A DNA stretch of 14,367 nucleotides, taken from the IMG/VR virus record IMGVR_UViG_2654587792_000011; one strand, 5' to 3'. Positions 257-9,518 of this stretch are shown one piece after another. The DNA is from a virus. Its lineage: Duplodnaviria; Heunggongvirae; Uroviricota; Caudoviricetes. A program made the position numbers and the translations under genes. Each line of letters starts with the position of its first letter. Within the stretch, counting starts at the first letter, position 1. The notes below the pieces were generated by a model. That model saw nothing but the letters and a program-made list of their open reading frames with translations, did not search any database and was not told the DNA's origin.

Positions 257-483
257 GTCCATAAGAAAGCCCCTCCGGAGAGGGGCTGGAGAGTGGCGCT
301 ATGTGCCATTGCATGGTGCCGGGTGCCTCCCGGTGAATTCAGTACCAGCACCTGAATCCGCGATTATCCCATATACCTACTCGCTGATTGCCCCTCCGCA
401 CAGGGGGATTCACCATGCCAGTTTCTTTTAACAAACTCCCCGCAAAACAGACAACAGTCAACCGCCTGAATTGTGAGACATTT

Positions 484-822: not shown

Positions 823-1872
823 TCAAACGATTAAATCCTGAACTTCCCTGACTGTCTGCTCAAAACGTCCGGTCTCCAGCTCAACACCAATCGCACGACG
901 CCCCAGTGCCATCGCCGCTTTTACCGTTGAACCCGACCCCATGAAAAAATCCGCAACCAGATCACCAGGACGACTACTTGCGCTGATTATCTGCTGCAGC
1001 ATTTCTGCCGGTTTTTCGCACGGATGTTTCCCTGGATAGTACTGCACCGGTTTATACGTCCACACATCGGTGTACGGCACCTGCACCGTCACACCGAAAT
1101 ACCGCCGCAAATTTTTATATTCACTCAGCAGTTCCATATACTGCCGGTTCAGCTCACTGTATGTGCTGACCAGCTGGTGGTGTGGCTTTTCCAGTTCCCC
1201 GCGCTGATGTTTCTCTTCTGCCACCCGGGCAAACAACGCCTGCAATTTGTTGTAATCACCCTCGTTCGGTAACTGCCACTGACTGGTACCAAACCAGTGC
1301 GAAGCCATGTTTTTCTTTCCGGTGGCTTCCGCTATCTGTTTTGACGTTATTCCCAGTGATTTACGCGCATCACGAAAGTAAGAAATCAGCGGGGCCATGA
1401 CGTGCTGTTTTAGCTCGCGCCCCTGTGCCACATAGCCATCATCTTTCGGGCGATACGGTCCCTGATAATGTTCTGCAAACAGAATGCGCTCTGTTGCCGG
1501 AAAATACGCCCGCAGACTTTCCTTATTGCACCCGTTCCAGCGTCCGGACGGCTTCGCCCAGATAATGTGGTTCAGCACATTAAAGCGCTCACGCATCATG
1601 ATTTCGGTGTCAGATGCCAGGCGATGACCACAGAACAGGTAAAAACTTCCGGCAGGCTTCAGTACCCGCCAGAACTGCGCCAGACACTGGTCCAGCCATT
1701 TCAGGTAATCATCGTCGCCCTCCCACTGGTTATCCCAGCCCTCGGGCTTCACTTTAAAGTATGGCGGGTCTGTGACTATCAGATCGACAGAGTTTTCCGG
1801 TAAGGTCTGGATAAATTCCAAGCAATCAGCGTTGATTAACTCACAACTGGATATTTTTACAGTATTAACCAT
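823..1872 (-). CDS. DNA methyltransferase (amino-MTase, N6-adenine or N4-cytosine, beta-class)
   Basis: 349-aa ORF. Motif IV DPPY (IVTDPPYF) lies near the N-terminus and the SAM-binding motif I FxGxG (FFMGSGST) near the C-terminus, which is the beta-class order. No restriction-enzyme partner is adjacent. Confidence 0.85.
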   Translation of the reverse strand: MVNTVKISSCELINADCLEFIQTLPENSVDLIVTDPPYFKVKPEGWDNQWEGDDDYLKWLDQCLAQFWRVLKPAGSFYLFCGHRLASDTEIMMRERFNVLNHIIWAKPSGRWNGCNKESLRAYFPATERILFAEHYQGPYRPKDDGYVAQGRELKQHVMAPLISYFRDARKSLGITSKQIAEATGKKNMASHWFGTSQWQLPNEGDYNKLQALFARVAEEKHQRGELEKPHHQLVSTYSELNRQYMELLSEYKNLRRYFGVTVQVPYTDVWTYKPVQYYPGKHPCEKPAEMLQQIISASSRPGDLVADFFMGSGSTVKAAMALGRRAIGVELETGRFEQTVREVQDLIV

Positions 1873-2022
1873 AGATCAATAAGCACTTCTCTGATAGGCT
1901 CATACCGCTTTTGCGCAAAGCAGATGGGCCTGAGGTTTGCTTGTGACCCCAACGCATGAGCAGATGGCTGGCAGGTGCCGCTAACACCCACCAGCCGCCC
2001 ATTACCACAAATTAAAAAACCT

Positions 2023-2220
2023 TCACTGAGGAAGGCGTCTGTAACAACCGAACTGATAATCTGCCAGACCCGCCATAACAAGCTGAGTCAGTATTAACTG
2101 GCAGCGTTCGCGTGAAAGGTAAGTATTCTGCGCAATTTCCCCGACGGTCGCCGGTTCGGTGACGCTTAATTCATTAAACACCACTCTGGCGGTTTCGGTC
2201 ATATCCTGCTGTTTTAGCAT
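2023..2220 (-). CDS. Small hypothetical protein, possibly winged-helix
   Basis: The track ORF is 2023-2343, but its first 41 codons run into the terminator hairpin. An internal ATG at 2218-2220 with an AAGGGA-like SD upstream gives a 65-aa product (MLKQQDMTETARVV...). Confidence 0.35.
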   Translation of the reverse strand: MLKQQDMTETARVVFNELSVTEPATVGEIAQNTYLSRERCQLILTQLVMAGLADYQFGCYRRLPQ

Positions 2221-2343
2221 GCCTTTTTCCCTTTTCCGGTTAACGTGACATACCAATACCTCTTGTCGAAAAAGCCAGCAAGCTGAAAGACCGGCATTCG
2301 CAACCACCAGCGCATTTAACGTCCTGTACCGCTTTTCGGGCAC

Positions 2344-2371
2344 AAAAAAACCCGCATAAAGCGGGTTCTTT
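2344..2371. terminator. Strong intrinsic terminator, tR'-like for the minus strand
   Basis: A-run 2344-2350, stem CCCGC (2351-2355) / GCGGG (2361-2365), loop ATAAA, then TTCTTT. On the minus strand the hairpin is followed by seven U. About 85 nt downstream of the Q-like stop. Confidence 0.6.
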
Positions 2372-2455
2372 CAGGTGTCCATGTCTGCTATTCGCCTCGC
2401 GGTATAGCTTTGCGAAGCGTAGCTGGATTGAAACAGTTTATGCGTAAAAAATCAA
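2372..2455 (-). promoter_or_regulatory. Candidate late promoter and antitermination (pR'/qut-like) region
   Basis: Sits between the Q-like stop and the terminator. On the minus strand there is a TTGATT (-35-like) overlapping the Q stop, then 17 nt, then TTCAAT (-10-like). Assignment is by position and analogy only. Confidence 0.3.
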
Positions 2456-3006
2456 GACATTTTTTGAGCAAACGATTCTCGCATAGGGATGTATAGCGCA
2501 TATTCAGCAACAGCCAACCAATTAGCAATTCGCTTTTCGCATGTACTAAAACACCATTCCGGGTGCACCTCATTCAACAATTCAGCCATTTTGCGTTTAC
2601 TCATCCCCCGCCCTTCGTATCTTTGCCGCAGGATATCAATCAATCCAGGATAACGTGCAAGCGCTTTACTTATCACCCCATCAATGCGTAACGCCTCTGC
2701 ATCAGTACAGTGAGACAACCAGCTCTTCTGTCTGCCAGCGATCATCTCTCGCAAGAATGCTTCCAGCTCTGGTTTATCAATCCCTGACTCCCTGATTCTA
2801 CGCAGGGCTTCATTGATCGCGGTTTTTGTCAGTTTTTTGGATGTCAGCAACTGATTGAACATATTTCCTGGTTTGCCACCACCTATGTACGACCAACGCC
2901 CCCACATCCGTAATTTCCCCTGGATCCAGACGGCTTCCAGCGTTTTTAGACGTAAATGCTCGCCGCTTTTGCCTGTAATTTCCGGGTATATCATATTTAC
3001 GATCAC
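2452..3006 (-). CDS. Putative late-gene antiterminator (Q-like), called by position
   Basis: 184-aa ORF coupled to rusA by a 4-nt overlap and followed by a terminator, which is the usual rusA-Q-pR'-tR' arrangement in lambdoid phages. I cannot verify sequence homology. Confidence 0.45.
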   Translation of the reverse strand: MIVNMIYPEITGKSGEHLRLKTLEAVWIQGKLRMWGRWSYIGGGKPGNMFNQLLTSKKLTKTAINEALRRIRESGIDKPELEAFLREMIAGRQKSWLSHCTDAEALRIDGVISKALARYPGLIDILRQRYEGRGMSKRKMAELLNEVHPEWCFSTCEKRIANWLAVAEYALYIPMRESFAQKMS

Positions 3007-3362
3007 TCACTCTCAATTTTGTAAATCTTCACGCCCAGCCGCCCCCCAGGAACGAGCTGACCGCGCACAATATTAATTTCATCAAACTGCTCGTCGTCTA
3101 TGAGAAGTCCGGCATGCGTCAGCGCATCCAGTGGTGCTTTCAGGATATTGTCCAGGTCACGACGACGCTTATCCGGTGGCTCTGCAATAATCTTTATCGC
3201 CAGCCGTCCGGACAGGTTTAATTTCAGCCGCTGCTCGCGAACAATTAGCGCCACATCCCGGCGATAACGCTCACCGGCTTTTGATACAAAATATGTGTTG
3301 TCACGACGTCGCCAGTAGGTGTTCACCGTTGGCGGGTAAGGCAAAACAAACTCTATACGCAT
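3003..3362 (-). CDS. rusA: Holliday junction resolvase RusA
   Basis: 119 aa. Size and motifs (PPxxN near the N-terminus, RRRDLDN, GxLxDD) match the RusA family. Confidence 0.85.
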   Translation of the reverse strand: MRIEFVLPYPPTVNTYWRRRDNTYFVSKAGERYRRDVALIVREQRLKLNLSGRLAIKIIAEPPDKRRRDLDNILKAPLDALTHAGLLIDDEQFDEINIVRGQLVPGGRLGVKIYKIESE

Positions 3363-3374
3363 CAGTAACCTCTT

Positions 3375-4370
3375 TTACCCAAGCACGCCGGTTGCAAAGG
3401 CGTGATCAAGAAAATGAAAAATTAAATCAACCTGGGAACCATGCTTTTCTTCGAATGCCAGCGGATCCGCATGAAGCTCGTTGTGATGTTCCCGACACAG
3501 CGGTAGTGTGAAAATATCGTGGGATTTTGTTCCCATTCCACCCTGACCGTGGCCTATCAGGTGGTGGGCATCATCAGCAGGCTTTCCGCAACATGCGCAC
3601 GGCTGCGTCTTAACCCAGCGCGTGTACTTTTCATTAACCCAGCGGCGACGTTTTGGGCGTAACATAAAAGACTCCGGCGACTCCGGATCCACTTTCAGCG
3701 CCAGCACCTTTTTCGCCTTATCCTGGATGATGCTGGTGGCAGTAACCGAAGGCACAAGGTCACTTTCCCGGGTAACAGACGGCACAACAGGCTTCGGTAA
3801 TCTCAGTGCCTTACGGGCTGCACTTTCCGATAAGGCATCCGCCAGATCATTACGAATCAGCCACCAGCACAGTTCCGGCATTGTCACAACGTGACTGTCG
3901 TCAAAACCGAGCTCCCGACGCACAACAGACAACACCCAGCGGGCACAGTTATCCGTTGCCATTGATTCCAGCCGTTCCGTGAACTGATCGCGCAGCTGGT
4001 TATCGCAGTGCCAGCACAGACGGATTGCGCCCGGAGCGTGTCGCATTGTGGTCATGTTCTCGCTGTGCCAGTTGGAATGAGGCCACTGACAGCCCTTTTC
4101 ACGAAGTAACCAGCTTTCAAGACATTCCACGCCACCAGCACGACGGATCACTGCCTCATTGCGGAACACGGCCCGAACGGCAGGATCATCCGCCAGCGGT
4201 TGTGATGCCGCCGGAACGGCACCACTGGCAAAAGATGAATAACGTTCCGGCTCAGGCTCCAGCAGGACACGCCCCTGCATAAACAGGGGCATCAGCTCTG
4301 AACCGGGCCTGAACAATACGATCCCCATACGCGGGGCAATTTCAGGGGTCAGTAGTGCTCTCACGGTCAC
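3375..4370 (-). CDS. Conserved phage protein with C-terminal HNH-like Cys/His motif (DUF968-like)
   Basis: 331 aa. C-terminal CACCGKP...HHLIGHG...LCREHHNELH looks like a zinc-binding HNH nuclease-like motif. Sits between the helicase and rusA as in many enterobacterial prophages. Confidence 0.55.
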   Translation of the reverse strand: MTVRALLTPEIAPRMGIVLFRPGSELMPLFMQGRVLLEPEPERYSSFASGAVPAASQPLADDPAVRAVFRNEAVIRRAGGVECLESWLLREKGCQWPHSNWHSENMTTMRHAPGAIRLCWHCDNQLRDQFTERLESMATDNCARWVLSVVRRELGFDDSHVVTMPELCWWLIRNDLADALSESAARKALRLPKPVVPSVTRESDLVPSVTATSIIQDKAKKVLALKVDPESPESFMLRPKRRRWVNEKYTRWVKTQPCACCGKPADDAHHLIGHGQGGMGTKSHDIFTLPLCREHHNELHADPLAFEEKHGSQVDLIFHFLDHAFATGVLG

Positions 4371-4415
4371 CTCAGCGAACGGTATTGCATGAACGCAGAA
4401 GAAAAAATTCAGCCA

Positions 4416-4673
4416 TCACGCAGTAAACTCCTTCACCAGTATTTCAAACTGGCTTACCTGGCCTTCCAGTTCCGCCACGCAATCCACCAGCTCATCCACC
4501 GCCTTTTGTGTGCGGTGTTTTGCCAGCAGCAGATCACGCAGCGCCGGAGTAAGCTGCTTGCGGAGCGTATCCTTTGCCACGCTCGTTTTTTCCATCTGTT
4601 CAGCACAACGAAGCATCTCCTGCGCCTGCCGACGAAGTTGTTCCGGTGAAACAGTGATTGCTCTGTTGTTCAA
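4416..4673 (-). CDS. Hypothetical phage protein
   Basis: 85-aa ORF whose start overlaps the helicase stop by 4 nt. No recognisable motif. Confidence 0.45.
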   Translation of the reverse strand: MNNRAITVSPEQLRRQAQEMLRCAEQMEKTSVAKDTLRKQLTPALRDLLLAKHRTQKAVDELVDCVAELEGQVSQFEILVKEFTA

Positions 4674-6070
4674 AATAAACGCTCCGTTTTACTGCCCGAC
4701 ATGCGGTTATTGCTGTATCTGCGCGGATTGCCCGGCGTCATGGGTGTGGAAAGAACCCGGGCACTCTCCTGGTCCACAGGCAGAAAATGTCCGTTATGAA
4801 AACGCCGGTAAATGGTCCCGAGCGTGCCATTACGCTGTTTCGTGATGTTGATTTCTGCTATGCCTCTGGCCTGAGTTTCCGGGTTGTATACCTCATCCCT
4901 GTAAAGCATCAGAATGATGTCGGCATCCGCCTCGATTTCCCCGGAGTTTTTCAGGTCCGAGTTCATTGGGCGTTTATTGGGTCTGGATTCCACGCCGCGG
5001 GAGAGTTGGCTCAGAGCAATCAGCGGAAAACCGCCGGATTTTGCCAGGCTTTTAAGTCCCTTTGAGATTTCCCCCACAGCAAGGTCGTGACGCCCCGTGC
5101 TGCGGGTTTTAATCAGGCCGAGGTAATCGACCACAACCAGCGCCGTTTCCGGGTGTTTCATCCGGTGGTGCTTCGTGGTTGCACATATCTCATCAATGGT
5201 CAGGTTTGCCTGGTCCACCATCCAGATATTACGCCCCGTCATTCGTCCCACGCCCTGCGAGAAACGCGCCCAGTCTTCATCTTCAAAACGGGCAACAGAC
5301 TTAAGACGGGATACCGGCATTCCACCGGCAGCAGACACCATACGTTCACCAATCTGGATGTTCGCCATCTCCATGGTGAACAGAAGCACGCCATGCCCCT
5401 GCTCAGTCACCTTGTCGATGATGTCCAGCGCAAGTTCGGTTTTCCCCATCGAAGGACGGGCGGCAATGAATACCAGGTCTCCGGGCTCCATACCGCCCGT
5501 TTTTGCGTCCAGTTCATCAATACCGGTCATCAGCGCCCTGGATTTCTCCAGTCCCTGATTGCGGCATTCAACACGGTCGACCACTTCCGGAAGGACATCA
5601 TCAATGTGAACCGGCTGAATGACGCCCTTTCCGGTCGACAGTGAGGCCATCATGTTCTGCGCATCCTTCAGGGCATCCTCGGCTGCTTCACAGGTATACG
5701 CATCACGTAAATTCTGTAATGCTTCAGTCAGTGTTTTTTCTGCATCGCGCAGTGCGGCATTGCGCCGCAACGCTGCGACATAGTGCTCCAGTGAAGACTT
5801 CACCCAGGTTTTGCGTCCGGTGTCGGTAATCACCGGGGCAAGTTCCGGCATCTCATTGCACAGCAGTACGGGGTCAATGACGCCGGATATGCGAGCCTGT
5901 CTGCAAATCCCCGCGTAAATATCCCGGTACTGACGCACAAAAAATACATCCGCCGGAAGTGTGGCCAGAATATCCATCACTTCCGGATCGGCCCCACGCA
6001 GAAAAAACGCACCGATGACAGCGCCTTCCAGGTCATCGTTACGCCATGCCGGGGTGTTCTGGCTGGTCAT
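4670..6070 (-). CDS. Replicative DNA helicase, DnaB family
   Basis: 466 aa. Walker A ARPSMGKT, Walker B-like VVVDYLGL, overall DnaB-like RecA-fold C-terminal domain. Confidence 0.9.
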   Translation of the reverse strand: MTSQNTPAWRNDDLEGAVIGAFFLRGADPEVMDILATLPADVFFVRQYRDIYAGICRQARISGVIDPVLLCNEMPELAPVITDTGRKTWVKSSLEHYVAALRRNAALRDAEKTLTEALQNLRDAYTCEAAEDALKDAQNMMASLSTGKGVIQPVHIDDVLPEVVDRVECRNQGLEKSRALMTGIDELDAKTGGMEPGDLVFIAARPSMGKTELALDIIDKVTEQGHGVLLFTMEMANIQIGERMVSAAGGMPVSRLKSVARFEDEDWARFSQGVGRMTGRNIWMVDQANLTIDEICATTKHHRMKHPETALVVVDYLGLIKTRSTGRHDLAVGEISKGLKSLAKSGGFPLIALSQLSRGVESRPNKRPMNSDLKNSGEIEADADIILMLYRDEVYNPETQARGIAEINITKQRNGTLGTIYRRFHNGHFLPVDQESARVLSTPMTPGNPRRYSNNRMSGSKTERLF

Positions 6071-8465: not shown

Positions 8466-8656
8466 GGACGCACCTCCGCCGTAGTTACGTATTTAACCGG
8501 GCTACCTTTCATTGAGATGGTTTCACACATCTCTGCCGCTTTCAGTTCCGCTGTTTTTCTGGATTTATAGCGACGGTGCCAGACAGATACATCCGTGCAA
8601 ACTGATACATCGTTTCTGTATTCCGTAGTGGAGATGATGATTTCGTAACTAATCAT
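8462..8656 (-). CDS. Hypothetical phage protein
   Basis: 64-aa ORF with 4-nt overlaps to both neighbours. Confidence 0.4.
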   Translation of the reverse strand: MISYEIIISTTEYRNDVSVCTDVSVWHRRYKSRKTAELKAAEMCETISMKGSPVKYVTTAEVRP

Positions 8657-9204
8657 GGGCGAACCTCCTTGTCAGAACCATTCAGCCTGGAATCAACAAG
8701 TGCAGCGCCAAAAACAGCATCACCAACACGGTCGTACAGTTTGCTAGCCAGCGGAGATTCAACGGCCTTAAGCATTGGATAAAGCTGGCTTGTCCAGATT
8801 TGATGGATTTCACGCAAATGCAGGTATACGCCTCTGGCGTTTCGTGCGACAGCTGACATATCAACCGCGTCAGCACCAGATAAATTCTTCTCCATCTGGT
8901 TAAAGGCGTTGATGTATGCCTCTTTGAACCGGGCTGCACGTTTGCCAGTAAAGCCCATAGCAAGGAACGCGAAGCCATCGCGGGTGATTTGATAGCAAGG
9001 TAGTTTGCGGCCTGTGCAATCGGTGTAATCACTGGGCTGAAAATTCAGCTCAGTGAATTCAACAGAGCACTCAAGCGTCTGGATTTTTTGAATAACGTTT
9101 TTGTGCTGCTTGCAGAAATATTCGGCAACGGCCAAAGAAGAGGTAACAGCCTTCCCATGGATAACATCAATTTTAGGGTGAGTTTGGGTAGGGGTGGTTG
9201 CCAT
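8653..9204 (-). CDS. Phage regulatory protein, Rha family
   Basis: N-terminus MATTPTQTHPKIDVIHGKAVTSSLAVAEYFCKQHKNVIQKI matches the Rha N-terminal signature. Start taken at the internal ATG 9202-9204 (GAGGA SD upstream), because the 9501 start would read through a terminator and a repeat-rich region. Confidence 0.65.
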   Translation of the reverse strand: MATTPTQTHPKIDVIHGKAVTSSLAVAEYFCKQHKNVIQKIQTLECSVEFTELNFQPSDYTDCTGRKLPCYQITRDGFAFLAMGFTGKRAARFKEAYINAFNQMEKNLSGADAVDMSAVARNARGVYLHLREIHQIWTSQLYPMLKAVESPLASKLYDRVGDAVFGAALVDSRLNGSDKEVRP

Positions 9205-9367
9205 AGTGACATCCTCATGTGCGAATTTTGAAAACTCACCACATGGGACGCCAATCACAGAGGTGGTGAGACGTACAGGGTTGGCGTAACCGGTCGCACA
9301 TGACCCCGGCGCATCTTTCGATGCCCCTGCACGCCCCACCATAATTTGGATGTGAGGAAACGTGCGC

Positions 9368-9389
9368 AAAAAAACCGCTGAAGCGCGGT
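9368..9389 (-). terminator. Intrinsic terminator inside the early-right operon (tR1-like)
   Basis: On the minus strand: stem ACCGC/GCGGU with 6-nt loop, followed by a U-run (complement of A368-A373 on plus). Confidence 0.45.
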
Positions 9390-9488
9390 TATGCGCATGT
9401 GCGAATTTCAGGACGCCAATCCCGGCACCCGCTTTATAAGGTGCGGAGACAGTGTAACGTCCCGAAATTGCAGAATCAATATTTGGTC

Positions 9489-9518
9489 TTGAAATGATCA
9501 TATAGCTGCTGATATCTT
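9489..9518 (+). promoter_or_regulatory. Candidate sigma70 promoter for a short plus-strand antisense RNA
   Basis: TTGAAA (9489-9494), 18-nt spacer, TG-extended TATCTT (9513-9518). Confidence 0.3.

Follow-up and report, generated by a model that had tools for sequence, protein, structure and literature searches.

What lies between a Q-like gene and the hairpin that follows it so closely, and could so short an interval hold a complete switch for late transcription? We addressed this question in a 14,367-nucleotide (nt) stretch of viral DNA (Caudoviricetes; IMG/VR record IMGVR_UViG_2654587792_000011), hereafter the window, in which a gene encoding a Q-like antiterminator of 180 amino acids (aa) from the DUF1133 family (2452–2994, ATG at 2994) is followed directly by promoter-like hexamers and an intrinsic terminator. 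The coordinates of these three features are all read on the minus strand. A sequence-only reading had proposed a unit resembling the late promoter (pR') and terminator (tR') of lambda. Comparison with other loci supported this proposal through a Q21-related protein, a motif with fixed spacing, the terminator, a pause-like hexamer as in phage 21, and the position of the lysis genes in a Kluyvera relative. We consider it probable (roughly three chances in four), from sequence and comparison, that the interval comprises the late promoter, pause site, and terminator of a lambdoid prophage, the Q protein of which belongs to a DUF1133 branch of the Q21 family. Understood in this way, the unit is an ordinary, previously undescribed member of the Q21-type late cassettes and not something unusual.

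Sequence elements of the interval

The open reading frame (ORF) of the Q-like protein ends in TGA at 2454–2452. Direct reading and comparison identified a −35-like hexamer, TTGATT (2455–2450), that overlaps this stop codon. Behind it, comparison delimited a 17-nt spacer, TTTTACGCATAAACTGT (2449–2433), which carries TG at 2435–2434, and a −10-like hexamer, TTCAAT (2432–2427). The arrangement TTGATT-17-TTCAAT across the stop codon, pointed out before as a possible late promoter, was confirmed at 2455–2427. A variable stretch of 5 nt, CCAGC (2426–2422), in the discriminator region, separates TTCAAT from a second −10-like hexamer, TACGCT (2421–2416), which is a candidate sigma-dependent pause element. 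The complete pattern, TTG-N17-TG-N-TTSAAT-N5-TANGCT, had a single match in the window, and 200 shuffles produced none. A consensus promoter and terminator scan of 1800–3100 called neither the promoter nor the terminator of the interval; the promoter was missed because TTCAAT has no A at position 2, and the terminator probably because maximal extension of the stem consumes the T run.

The candidate tR' (2372–2344), recognized by folding and comparison, is built on a core of CCCGC and GCGGG (2365–2361 and 2355–2351) with the loop TTTAT. Additional A-U and G-U pairs lengthen this hairpin to 12 base pairs (bp), and its run of seven T residues, the U7 tail of the RNA, occupies 2350–2344. The hairpin at 2372–2344 folded at −17.1 kcal/mol (z = −5.9), a stability that no sequence among 200 shuffles reached. 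From the stop codon to the stem base at AACCCGC, the distance was 84 nt (2451–2368), in agreement with the approximately 85 nt noted earlier. The same hairpin had been described as bidirectional, with U7 on the minus strand. The U7 tail was verified, while bidirectionality was true only in a weak sense: the plus strand forms a stem of just 7 bp (−11.5 kcal/mol) with a broken U tract, UUCUUUC, as its tail, and no convergent gene needs plus-strand termination at this hairpin. Among related DUF1133 loci, 23 distinct RNAs could be delimited, and each of them had a hairpin and T run. With the A of TA.GCT as the first base and the last T of the run as the end, these 23 predicted RNAs measured 61–110 nt, with a median of 71 nt.

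Conservation and spacing of the motif across DUF1133 loci

Scanning bacterial genomes, one for each species, we recovered 32 loci with relatives, 30 of which (L004–L033) had a usable Q-like gene, at 50–84% protein identity. The motif TTG-N3-N17-[C/T]TNAAT-N5-TANGCT was found with exact spacing at the end of the gene in 25 of these 30 loci. A Salmonella locus (L009) has it further downstream, bringing the total to 26, and a Pantoea locus (L015) has a close variant downstream of the gene. TTG belonged to the search pattern, and the evidence consists of the fixed spacing and the rate of 26/30. In all matching loci, the upstream −10-like hexamer was TTSAAT or TTAAAT and the second hexamer was TA[A/C/G/T]GCT. 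Moreover, the TG at −15/−14, which lay outside the first search pattern, was kept in at least 90% of the distinct loci; a TG so placed, one base before the −10, characterizes extended −10 promoters.

Viral contigs were scanned using the conserved transcribed core as query, and this exposed over 120 loci, with 83 distinct variants, in which the upstream architecture was unchanged. Across the 83 variants and 24 distinct loci, the stretch between the two hexamers was the most variable part of the unit, and its length was always 5 nt. In the viral-contig variants, the 3' half of the spacer (ATAAACTG[C/T]) was nearly constant and the 5' half variable, and among the DUF1133 loci the spacer sequence was conserved within subgroups. 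By analogy to phage 21, we regard the spacer at 2449–2433 as a candidate Q-binding region. Downstream of the conserved 5' block, the viral variants carried at least four unrelated linker types and two terminator types, and the hairpin always began 44–57 nt past the hexamer.

The Rac-SA53 prophage of enterotoxigenic Escherichia coli (ETEC), in which the DUF1133 gene is annotated as Q, has the arrangement TTGATT-17-TATCTT-5-TAAGAT. Its spacings equal the 17 and 5 nt of the window, its hexamers are unrelated, and TATCTT is the better −10. The unit itself was present in 1803 of 5426 complete E. coli genomes, with one to five copies in each. In O157:H7, for example, a homologous locus lies at 2097981–2098095 of strain TW14359.

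Other modules have entered after Q in some of the relatives. In the Gifsy-1-like loci L007 (3575–3776) and L009 (3588–3768), an isrK-C4 module follows the DUF1133 gene directly, and TTGACT-18-TATATT overlaps the stop codon of that gene. In the latter, the isrK-C4-antirepressor module stands directly after Q, the motif lies just past it at 4390–4429, and the terminator is disrupted. In the Pantoea locus, a hok/sok module (Rfam sok, 129 bits) at 3699–3847 is located between the DUF1133 gene and the motif variant at 4135–4174. These sequence arrangements support the view that the motif would stay with the late region when other modules enter after Q.

Relationship of the DUF1133 protein to phage 21 Q

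The Q-like protein matched DUF1133 in Pfam at 1e-102 and PHROG 753, ‘anti-termination protein Q-like’, at 7e-78. Against PF06530, the family of Q21 and Q933W, it scored 28.1 bits, the curated cut-off being 26. When a profile of 11 DUF1133 sequences was searched against PDB sequences, the top two matches were the Q21 structures 6JNX and 6P18; these matches were weak (E ~0.03) and collinear from N- to C-terminus. Additionally, when 17 DUF1133 proteins were compared by hhalign, profile to profile, with three members of the Q21 family, the probability was 96.2% and the E-value 2.5e-9 over 96 columns, in an alignment that spans the WGxW and C-DDDG motifs. From these profile comparisons, we place DUF1133 in the Q21 family as a diverged branch, distantly related to phage 21 Q, a relationship already suggested by HHpred in a survey of phages encoding Shiga toxin (Stx; PMC8136144).

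We also considered whether DUF1133 corresponds to AntQ of Gifsy-1 and rejected this identification. The antQ cloning primer (PMC4825925, supplementary file 7) encodes MNTQYLQ and not MIYP, and the Gifsy-1 AntQ of strain SL1344 is therefore not a DUF1133 protein. In strains other than SL1344, isrK does follow a DUF1133 gene.

Comparison with the late units of phage 21 and lambda

The late unit of phage 21 offered the closest template. In its record (OL657228; locus positions), the Q stop is at 1974, the −35 hexamer TTGACA at 1981–1986, the −10 at 2004–2009, and the start site at 2016, and a Q-binding element, ATTGAGCA-AATGAGCA, a direct repeat of 8-bp subsites, fills the promoter spacer. The sigma-dependent pause element, TAAGCTG, occupies 2017–2023 (+2 to +8), and a terminator at 2018–2065 yields a transcript of ~50 nt, with tRNA genes and then lysis genes downstream. 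These phage 21 elements were defined experimentally (OL657228; Yin et al. 2019, bioRxiv 10.1101/651190), whereas those of the window are predicted from sequence. Since the terminated transcript of phage 21 is only ~50 nt long, a very short unit is a known state of this Q family. The earlier description of the window's unit as compact and shorter than the 6S RNA of lambda therefore held with respect to length, but the novelty that it implied did not.

The two units are alike in several respects. Both have related Q proteins, a promoter (a putative one in the window) at or just after the Q stop, a 17-nt spacer, and a TA.GCT hexamer at the transcript start (TAAGCT in phage 21), within which the RNA stem begins. 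In both, the terminator follows within tens of nt, and beyond it come tRNA genes and finally the lysis genes. Outside the window, some DUF1133 relatives have A[G/T/A]TGAGC[A/C] right after the −35, which resembles ATTGAGCA. The two units differ in that the DUF1133 proteins have an insertion of ~30 aa and form a separate Pfam family, and that the −10 of phage 21 is AACACT, whereas the window has TTCAAT with an upstream TG. The window also has a separate 5' hairpin and a 20-nt linker before the terminator, so that its RNA would be ~77 nt long as compared with ~50 nt.

In lambda, a constitutive pR' lies right after Q, a −10-like pause element stands at the transcript start, and tR' is ignored by the Q-modified polymerase. 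The window's unit would share this logic of pR', 6S RNA, and tR'. In contrast, lambda Q belongs to an unrelated family, PF03589, its terminated RNA is 194 nt, and its pause element is AACGAT.

Gene order between Q and the lysis genes

Over 1.3 kb, the window shared 99.8% identity with a prophage of E. coli O55:H7 RM12579; its identity to a prophage of ETEC H10407 was ~99.4%. The DnaB-type helicase gene comes first, followed by those for DUF968 and RusA, the DUF1133 gene, a small ORF, the gene for a DNA methyltransferase, and three tRNA genes. The DUF1133 gene has the position typical of Q, behind DUF968 and RusA at the close of the early right operon and ahead of the lysis genes. In the near-identical prophage, an esterase, a holin, and a lysozyme follow beyond the limit of the window, and the holin gene lies ~4.7 kb after Q. 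The stretch between Q and holin (L003, 6600–11600) contained 14 terminator-like sites, as compared with 5.6 ± 2.4 expected, including one directly behind the tRNAs and two immediately ahead of the holin gene, while promoter-like sites were at chance level. This excess of terminators fits the need for a terminator-resistant polymerase arriving from upstream. In the Kluyvera locus (L018), Q is followed by the motif, terminators, two consecutive holin genes, and an endolysin gene, and the first holin gene starts ~160 nt past the Q stop.

Proposed mechanism and alternative explanations

We propose that a sigma-70 promoter, composed of TTGATT, a 17-nt spacer with TG, and TTCAAT, would start transcription near A2420. 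The −10-like hexamer TACGCT, at about −1 to +5, would then allow sigma to re-engage, and the polymerase would pause after ~12–18 nt. Q bound at the spacer could load onto the paused polymerase and render it resistant to terminators. Without Q, transcription would end at the hairpin and U7 (2372–2344), giving an RNA of ~77 nt; with Q, the polymerase would pass this terminator and several further ones, transcribe the cargo of TrmB-like gene, methylase, and tRNAs, and reach the lysis genes ~4.7 kb away.

Several observations weigh against this proposal. The hexamer TTCAAT has T, not A, at −11 of the putative −10, which is rare for sigma-70 promoters. The pause-like hexamer lies 3 nt closer to the start than that of phage 21. 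Further, no direct repeat comparable to the ATTGAGCA/AATGAGCA of phage 21 is obvious in the spacer of the window, and the octamer A[G/T/A]TGAGC[A/C] follows the −35 only in some relatives, where it falls within coding sequence. An AlphaFold model of the DUF1133 protein, built from an 11-sequence alignment, had a mean predicted local distance difference test (pLDDT) score of 47 and did not confirm the fold. Finally, we found no published measurement of a 5' end, a pause, or readthrough for any DUF1133 Q, and the antitermination experiments on Gifsy-1 AntQ (PMC4825925) cannot be transferred to DUF1133.

The irregular −10 invites an alternative in which the real −10 is TACGCT (2421–2416). Transcription would then start near A2409, the conserved TTG...TTCAAT block would bind Q or another protein, and the RNA would be ~64 nt long and lack the 5' arm of the hairpin. 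TA.GCT indeed has the canonical A at position 2, which TTCAAT lacks, and T at position 6, and in the 192-aa subgroup 14 of 14 members have TG at the extended −10 position before it. However, the window and many variants lack that TG, and no subgroup has a −35-like hexamer 16–18 nt upstream of TA.GCT. This arrangement would also leave no −10-like pause element after the start, and it would not explain why TTG, the 17-nt distance, and the TG ahead of TTSAAT are conserved. In phage 21, the hexamer of the TA.GCT type is the pause element and not the −10, and in Rac-SA53 the upstream hexamer, TATCTT, is a good −10. We consider a start directed by TACGCT unlikely.

The hairpin might instead merely end the early/Q operon and mark a module boundary, with the late promoter located elsewhere and the block before the hairpin being an independent small-RNA gene or an element without Q action. 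That the terminator coincides with a recombination joint (described below), that the predicted RNA resembles typical small regulatory RNAs, and that another small-RNA gene, isrK, occupies the same place after Q in Gifsy-1-like loci would all agree with this. Yet the Kluyvera locus leaves no room for another late promoter, because its first holin gene begins so close to the Q stop, and in the near-identical prophage the promoter-like sites before the holin gene do not exceed chance, with many terminators between. The layout also equals the pR' of phage 21 element by element. Moreover, this explanation does not exclude a late-promoter function, since StxS serves as a pR' leader and as a small RNA at once (PMC7547250). 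Overall, a simple operon end appears quite improbable to us. The failure of the promoter scanner to report a site might also suggest a chance juxtaposition of hexamers and hairpin in an AT-rich intergenic region. This explanation is very hard to credit against a motif absent from all the shuffles and present in 26 of 30 distant loci and in over 100 viral contigs at fixed spacing, together with the z-score of the hairpin.

Many prophages of E. coli, Shigella, Salmonella, Klebsiella, and related bacteria have a DUF1133 protein as their Q-like regulator, and in some of them the slot behind the terminator is occupied by toxin genes, which encode Stx (13 Stx phages in PMC8136144), pertussis-like toxin (Rac-SA53), or an ArtA-like toxin (the Salmonella locus). 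Specifically, the eplBA toxin genes (pertussis-like) of Rac-SA53 are located between the DUF1133 Q and the holin gene, and in the Salmonella prophage L009 a gene for a pertussis-toxin S1-like (ArtA-like) protein lies downstream of the motif at 5128–5892. A defined promoter, pause site, and terminator could provide a template for testing the switching of late and toxin genes in DUF1133 prophages. The unit leaves the picture of how Q proteins work unchanged.

The predicted short RNA

The unit also points to a short RNA that lysogens may make constantly. From a start that we infer at A2420, with pausing at TACGCT, the terminated RNA is predicted to extend to ~2344 and to be ~77 nt long (range 75–79), which replaces the ~60 nt given for the unantiterminated transcript in the sequence-only reading. 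The 77-nt RNA (A2420–2344) folded at −29.3 kcal/mol (z = −4.5) and was laid out as an 8-bp 5' stem-loop, an unpaired linker of 20 nt, and the terminator. The predicted 5' stem-loop (2419–2393, minus strand), found by folding and recurrence, pairs CGCUUCGC with GCGAGGCG around an 11-nt loop, at −12.7 kcal/mol (z = −2.65). The linker, AAUAGCAGACAUGGACACCU (2392–2373, minus strand), is predicted to be single-stranded and is exchangeable between relatives.

A stem beginning at nt 2–3 of the predicted RNA recurred with unrelated sequences in other groups. The 192-aa group has the 5' stem GCUCGG/CUGAGC and Rac-SA53 has AGAUGC/GCAUCU, while in phage 21 the stem at the RNA start is the terminator stem itself. 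In addition, the window-type core varies at three positions, all of which fell within the loop of the 5' stem-loop. A smaller hairpin, GCUU-CGCA-AAGC, was tried and rejected, as a variable position would break it, and the stem of 7–8 bp with an 11-nt loop was preferred because it fits the observed variation. The 5' stem of the short RNA is likely real.

A hairpin, an open stretch, and a terminator are the usual look of Hfq-dependent RNAs. By analogy, and tentatively, the ~77-nt leader may represent a widespread family of prophage small regulatory RNAs, made constitutively in lysogens, with a constant 5' stem-loop and a swappable targeting linker; we regard this as possible, if rather doubtful. 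The best pairing partner of the linker within the prophage reached −26.0 kcal/mol and 30 shuffled linkers −19.4 to −26.6 kcal/mol, such that no signal was detected in that search. No Rfam family matched the short RNA at threshold, AgvB, AsxR, and Esr41 included. Papers on Pas and EcOnc small RNAs contained no match to its position, and a full-text literature search with the core sequence returned no match.

There is precedent for a leader with a second role. StxS of Stx1 and Stx2a phages is a terminated late-promoter leader that acts as a small RNA; it is 258 nt long, is cut to 74 nt, was shown to bind Hfq, and targets rpoS and stx1B (PMC7547250). As would hold for the window's predicted RNA, StxS is a by-product of the terminated late promoter in the lysogen, comes directly after Q, and ends in the tR' hairpin. 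It differs in following a 144-aa Q, and its likeness to the window RNA is one of layout. IsrK of Gifsy-1 is likewise ~77 nt long and, in Gifsy-1-like loci, lies directly after a Q-like gene with its promoter overlapping the stop codon. In contrast to the window's unit, it is part of a P1-type c4/antirepressor module, and the true copy of isrK in the window is located elsewhere, at 9368–9444. We rejected an identification of the short RNA itself as IsrK (RF01394), which scored 21.6 bits (E 0.009) at 2345–2418 against a cut-off of 50 and in which the alignment shared the layout only.

The cargo cassette and the mosaic joint

The first gene past the terminator encodes a TrmB-like protein of 65 aa (2220–2023, minus strand), in accord with the earlier remark that a small winged-helix-like ORF, and not a lysis gene, comes first. 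This non-lysis gene is in the usual ‘moron’ cargo slot, and the same cassette is shared with Stx2 phages, where it precedes stx2. The ORF matched Pfam TrmB with an E-value of 0.0026, below the cut-off, and PHROG 331 (function unknown) at 1e-37, and its phiP27 homologue is named a TrmB family regulator in RefSeq. The second cargo gene encodes a DNA methyltransferase (1872–823, minus strand; Pfam N6_N4_Mtase, 9e-45), beyond which a tRNA search located three tRNA genes (527–773). In the Stx2a phage EH2201, the same cassette is found after a 126-aa Q of the Q21 type and before stx2AB.

The borders of this cassette could be placed by similarity. Resemblance to phiP27 and many Stx2 phages begins at 2355, inside the terminator, and spans the small ORF and the methylase, while resemblance to phages with the same Q type stops at 2342. 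As the two boundaries meet at the terminator, the latter is the joint between a module of Q plus promoter and an exchangeable cargo module. Between the terminator and the TrmB-like ORF lies a conserved non-coding leader of the cassette (2343–2221, minus strand), in a stretch 90–95% identical to phiP27 and Stx2 phages. Within these 123 nt (2221–2343) there is a 1-nt indel relative to phiP27, and the stretch is out of frame with the small ORF. The indel breaks the frame, and a 106-aa ORF starting at GTG (2023–2343) is therefore an over-call and the stretch a non-coding leader.

In phiP27 (L001, 2689–3918), a gene for a GIY-YIG nuclease lies between the Q-like gene, which has the promoter-like TTGATT-16-TAAAAT, and the shared terminator; this gene may have entered a late promoter-terminator unit as a mobile insertion. 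A second terminator-like hairpin in the window (2019–2036, minus strand), GCCTTC...GAAGGT followed by a T run, overlaps the TrmB-like ORF at its stop codon. Just after the three tRNAs, in the slot that stx has in Stx phages, there is an Rfam match to STnc100 (257–447, minus strand, 139 bits), an RNA that a 2026 preprint links to the PasD small RNAs of enteropathogenic E. coli.

Finally, at 9259–9444 (minus strand), isrK (62 bits) stands beside a C4 antisense RNA (75 bits), inside the 5' part of a 282-aa ORF (8653–9501) that corresponds to a Rha-family regulator annotated in the near-identical RM12579 prophage. The start of this ORF may be over-called, and the segment at 9259–9444 looks like a P1-type c4/antirepressor immunity module of the early region.

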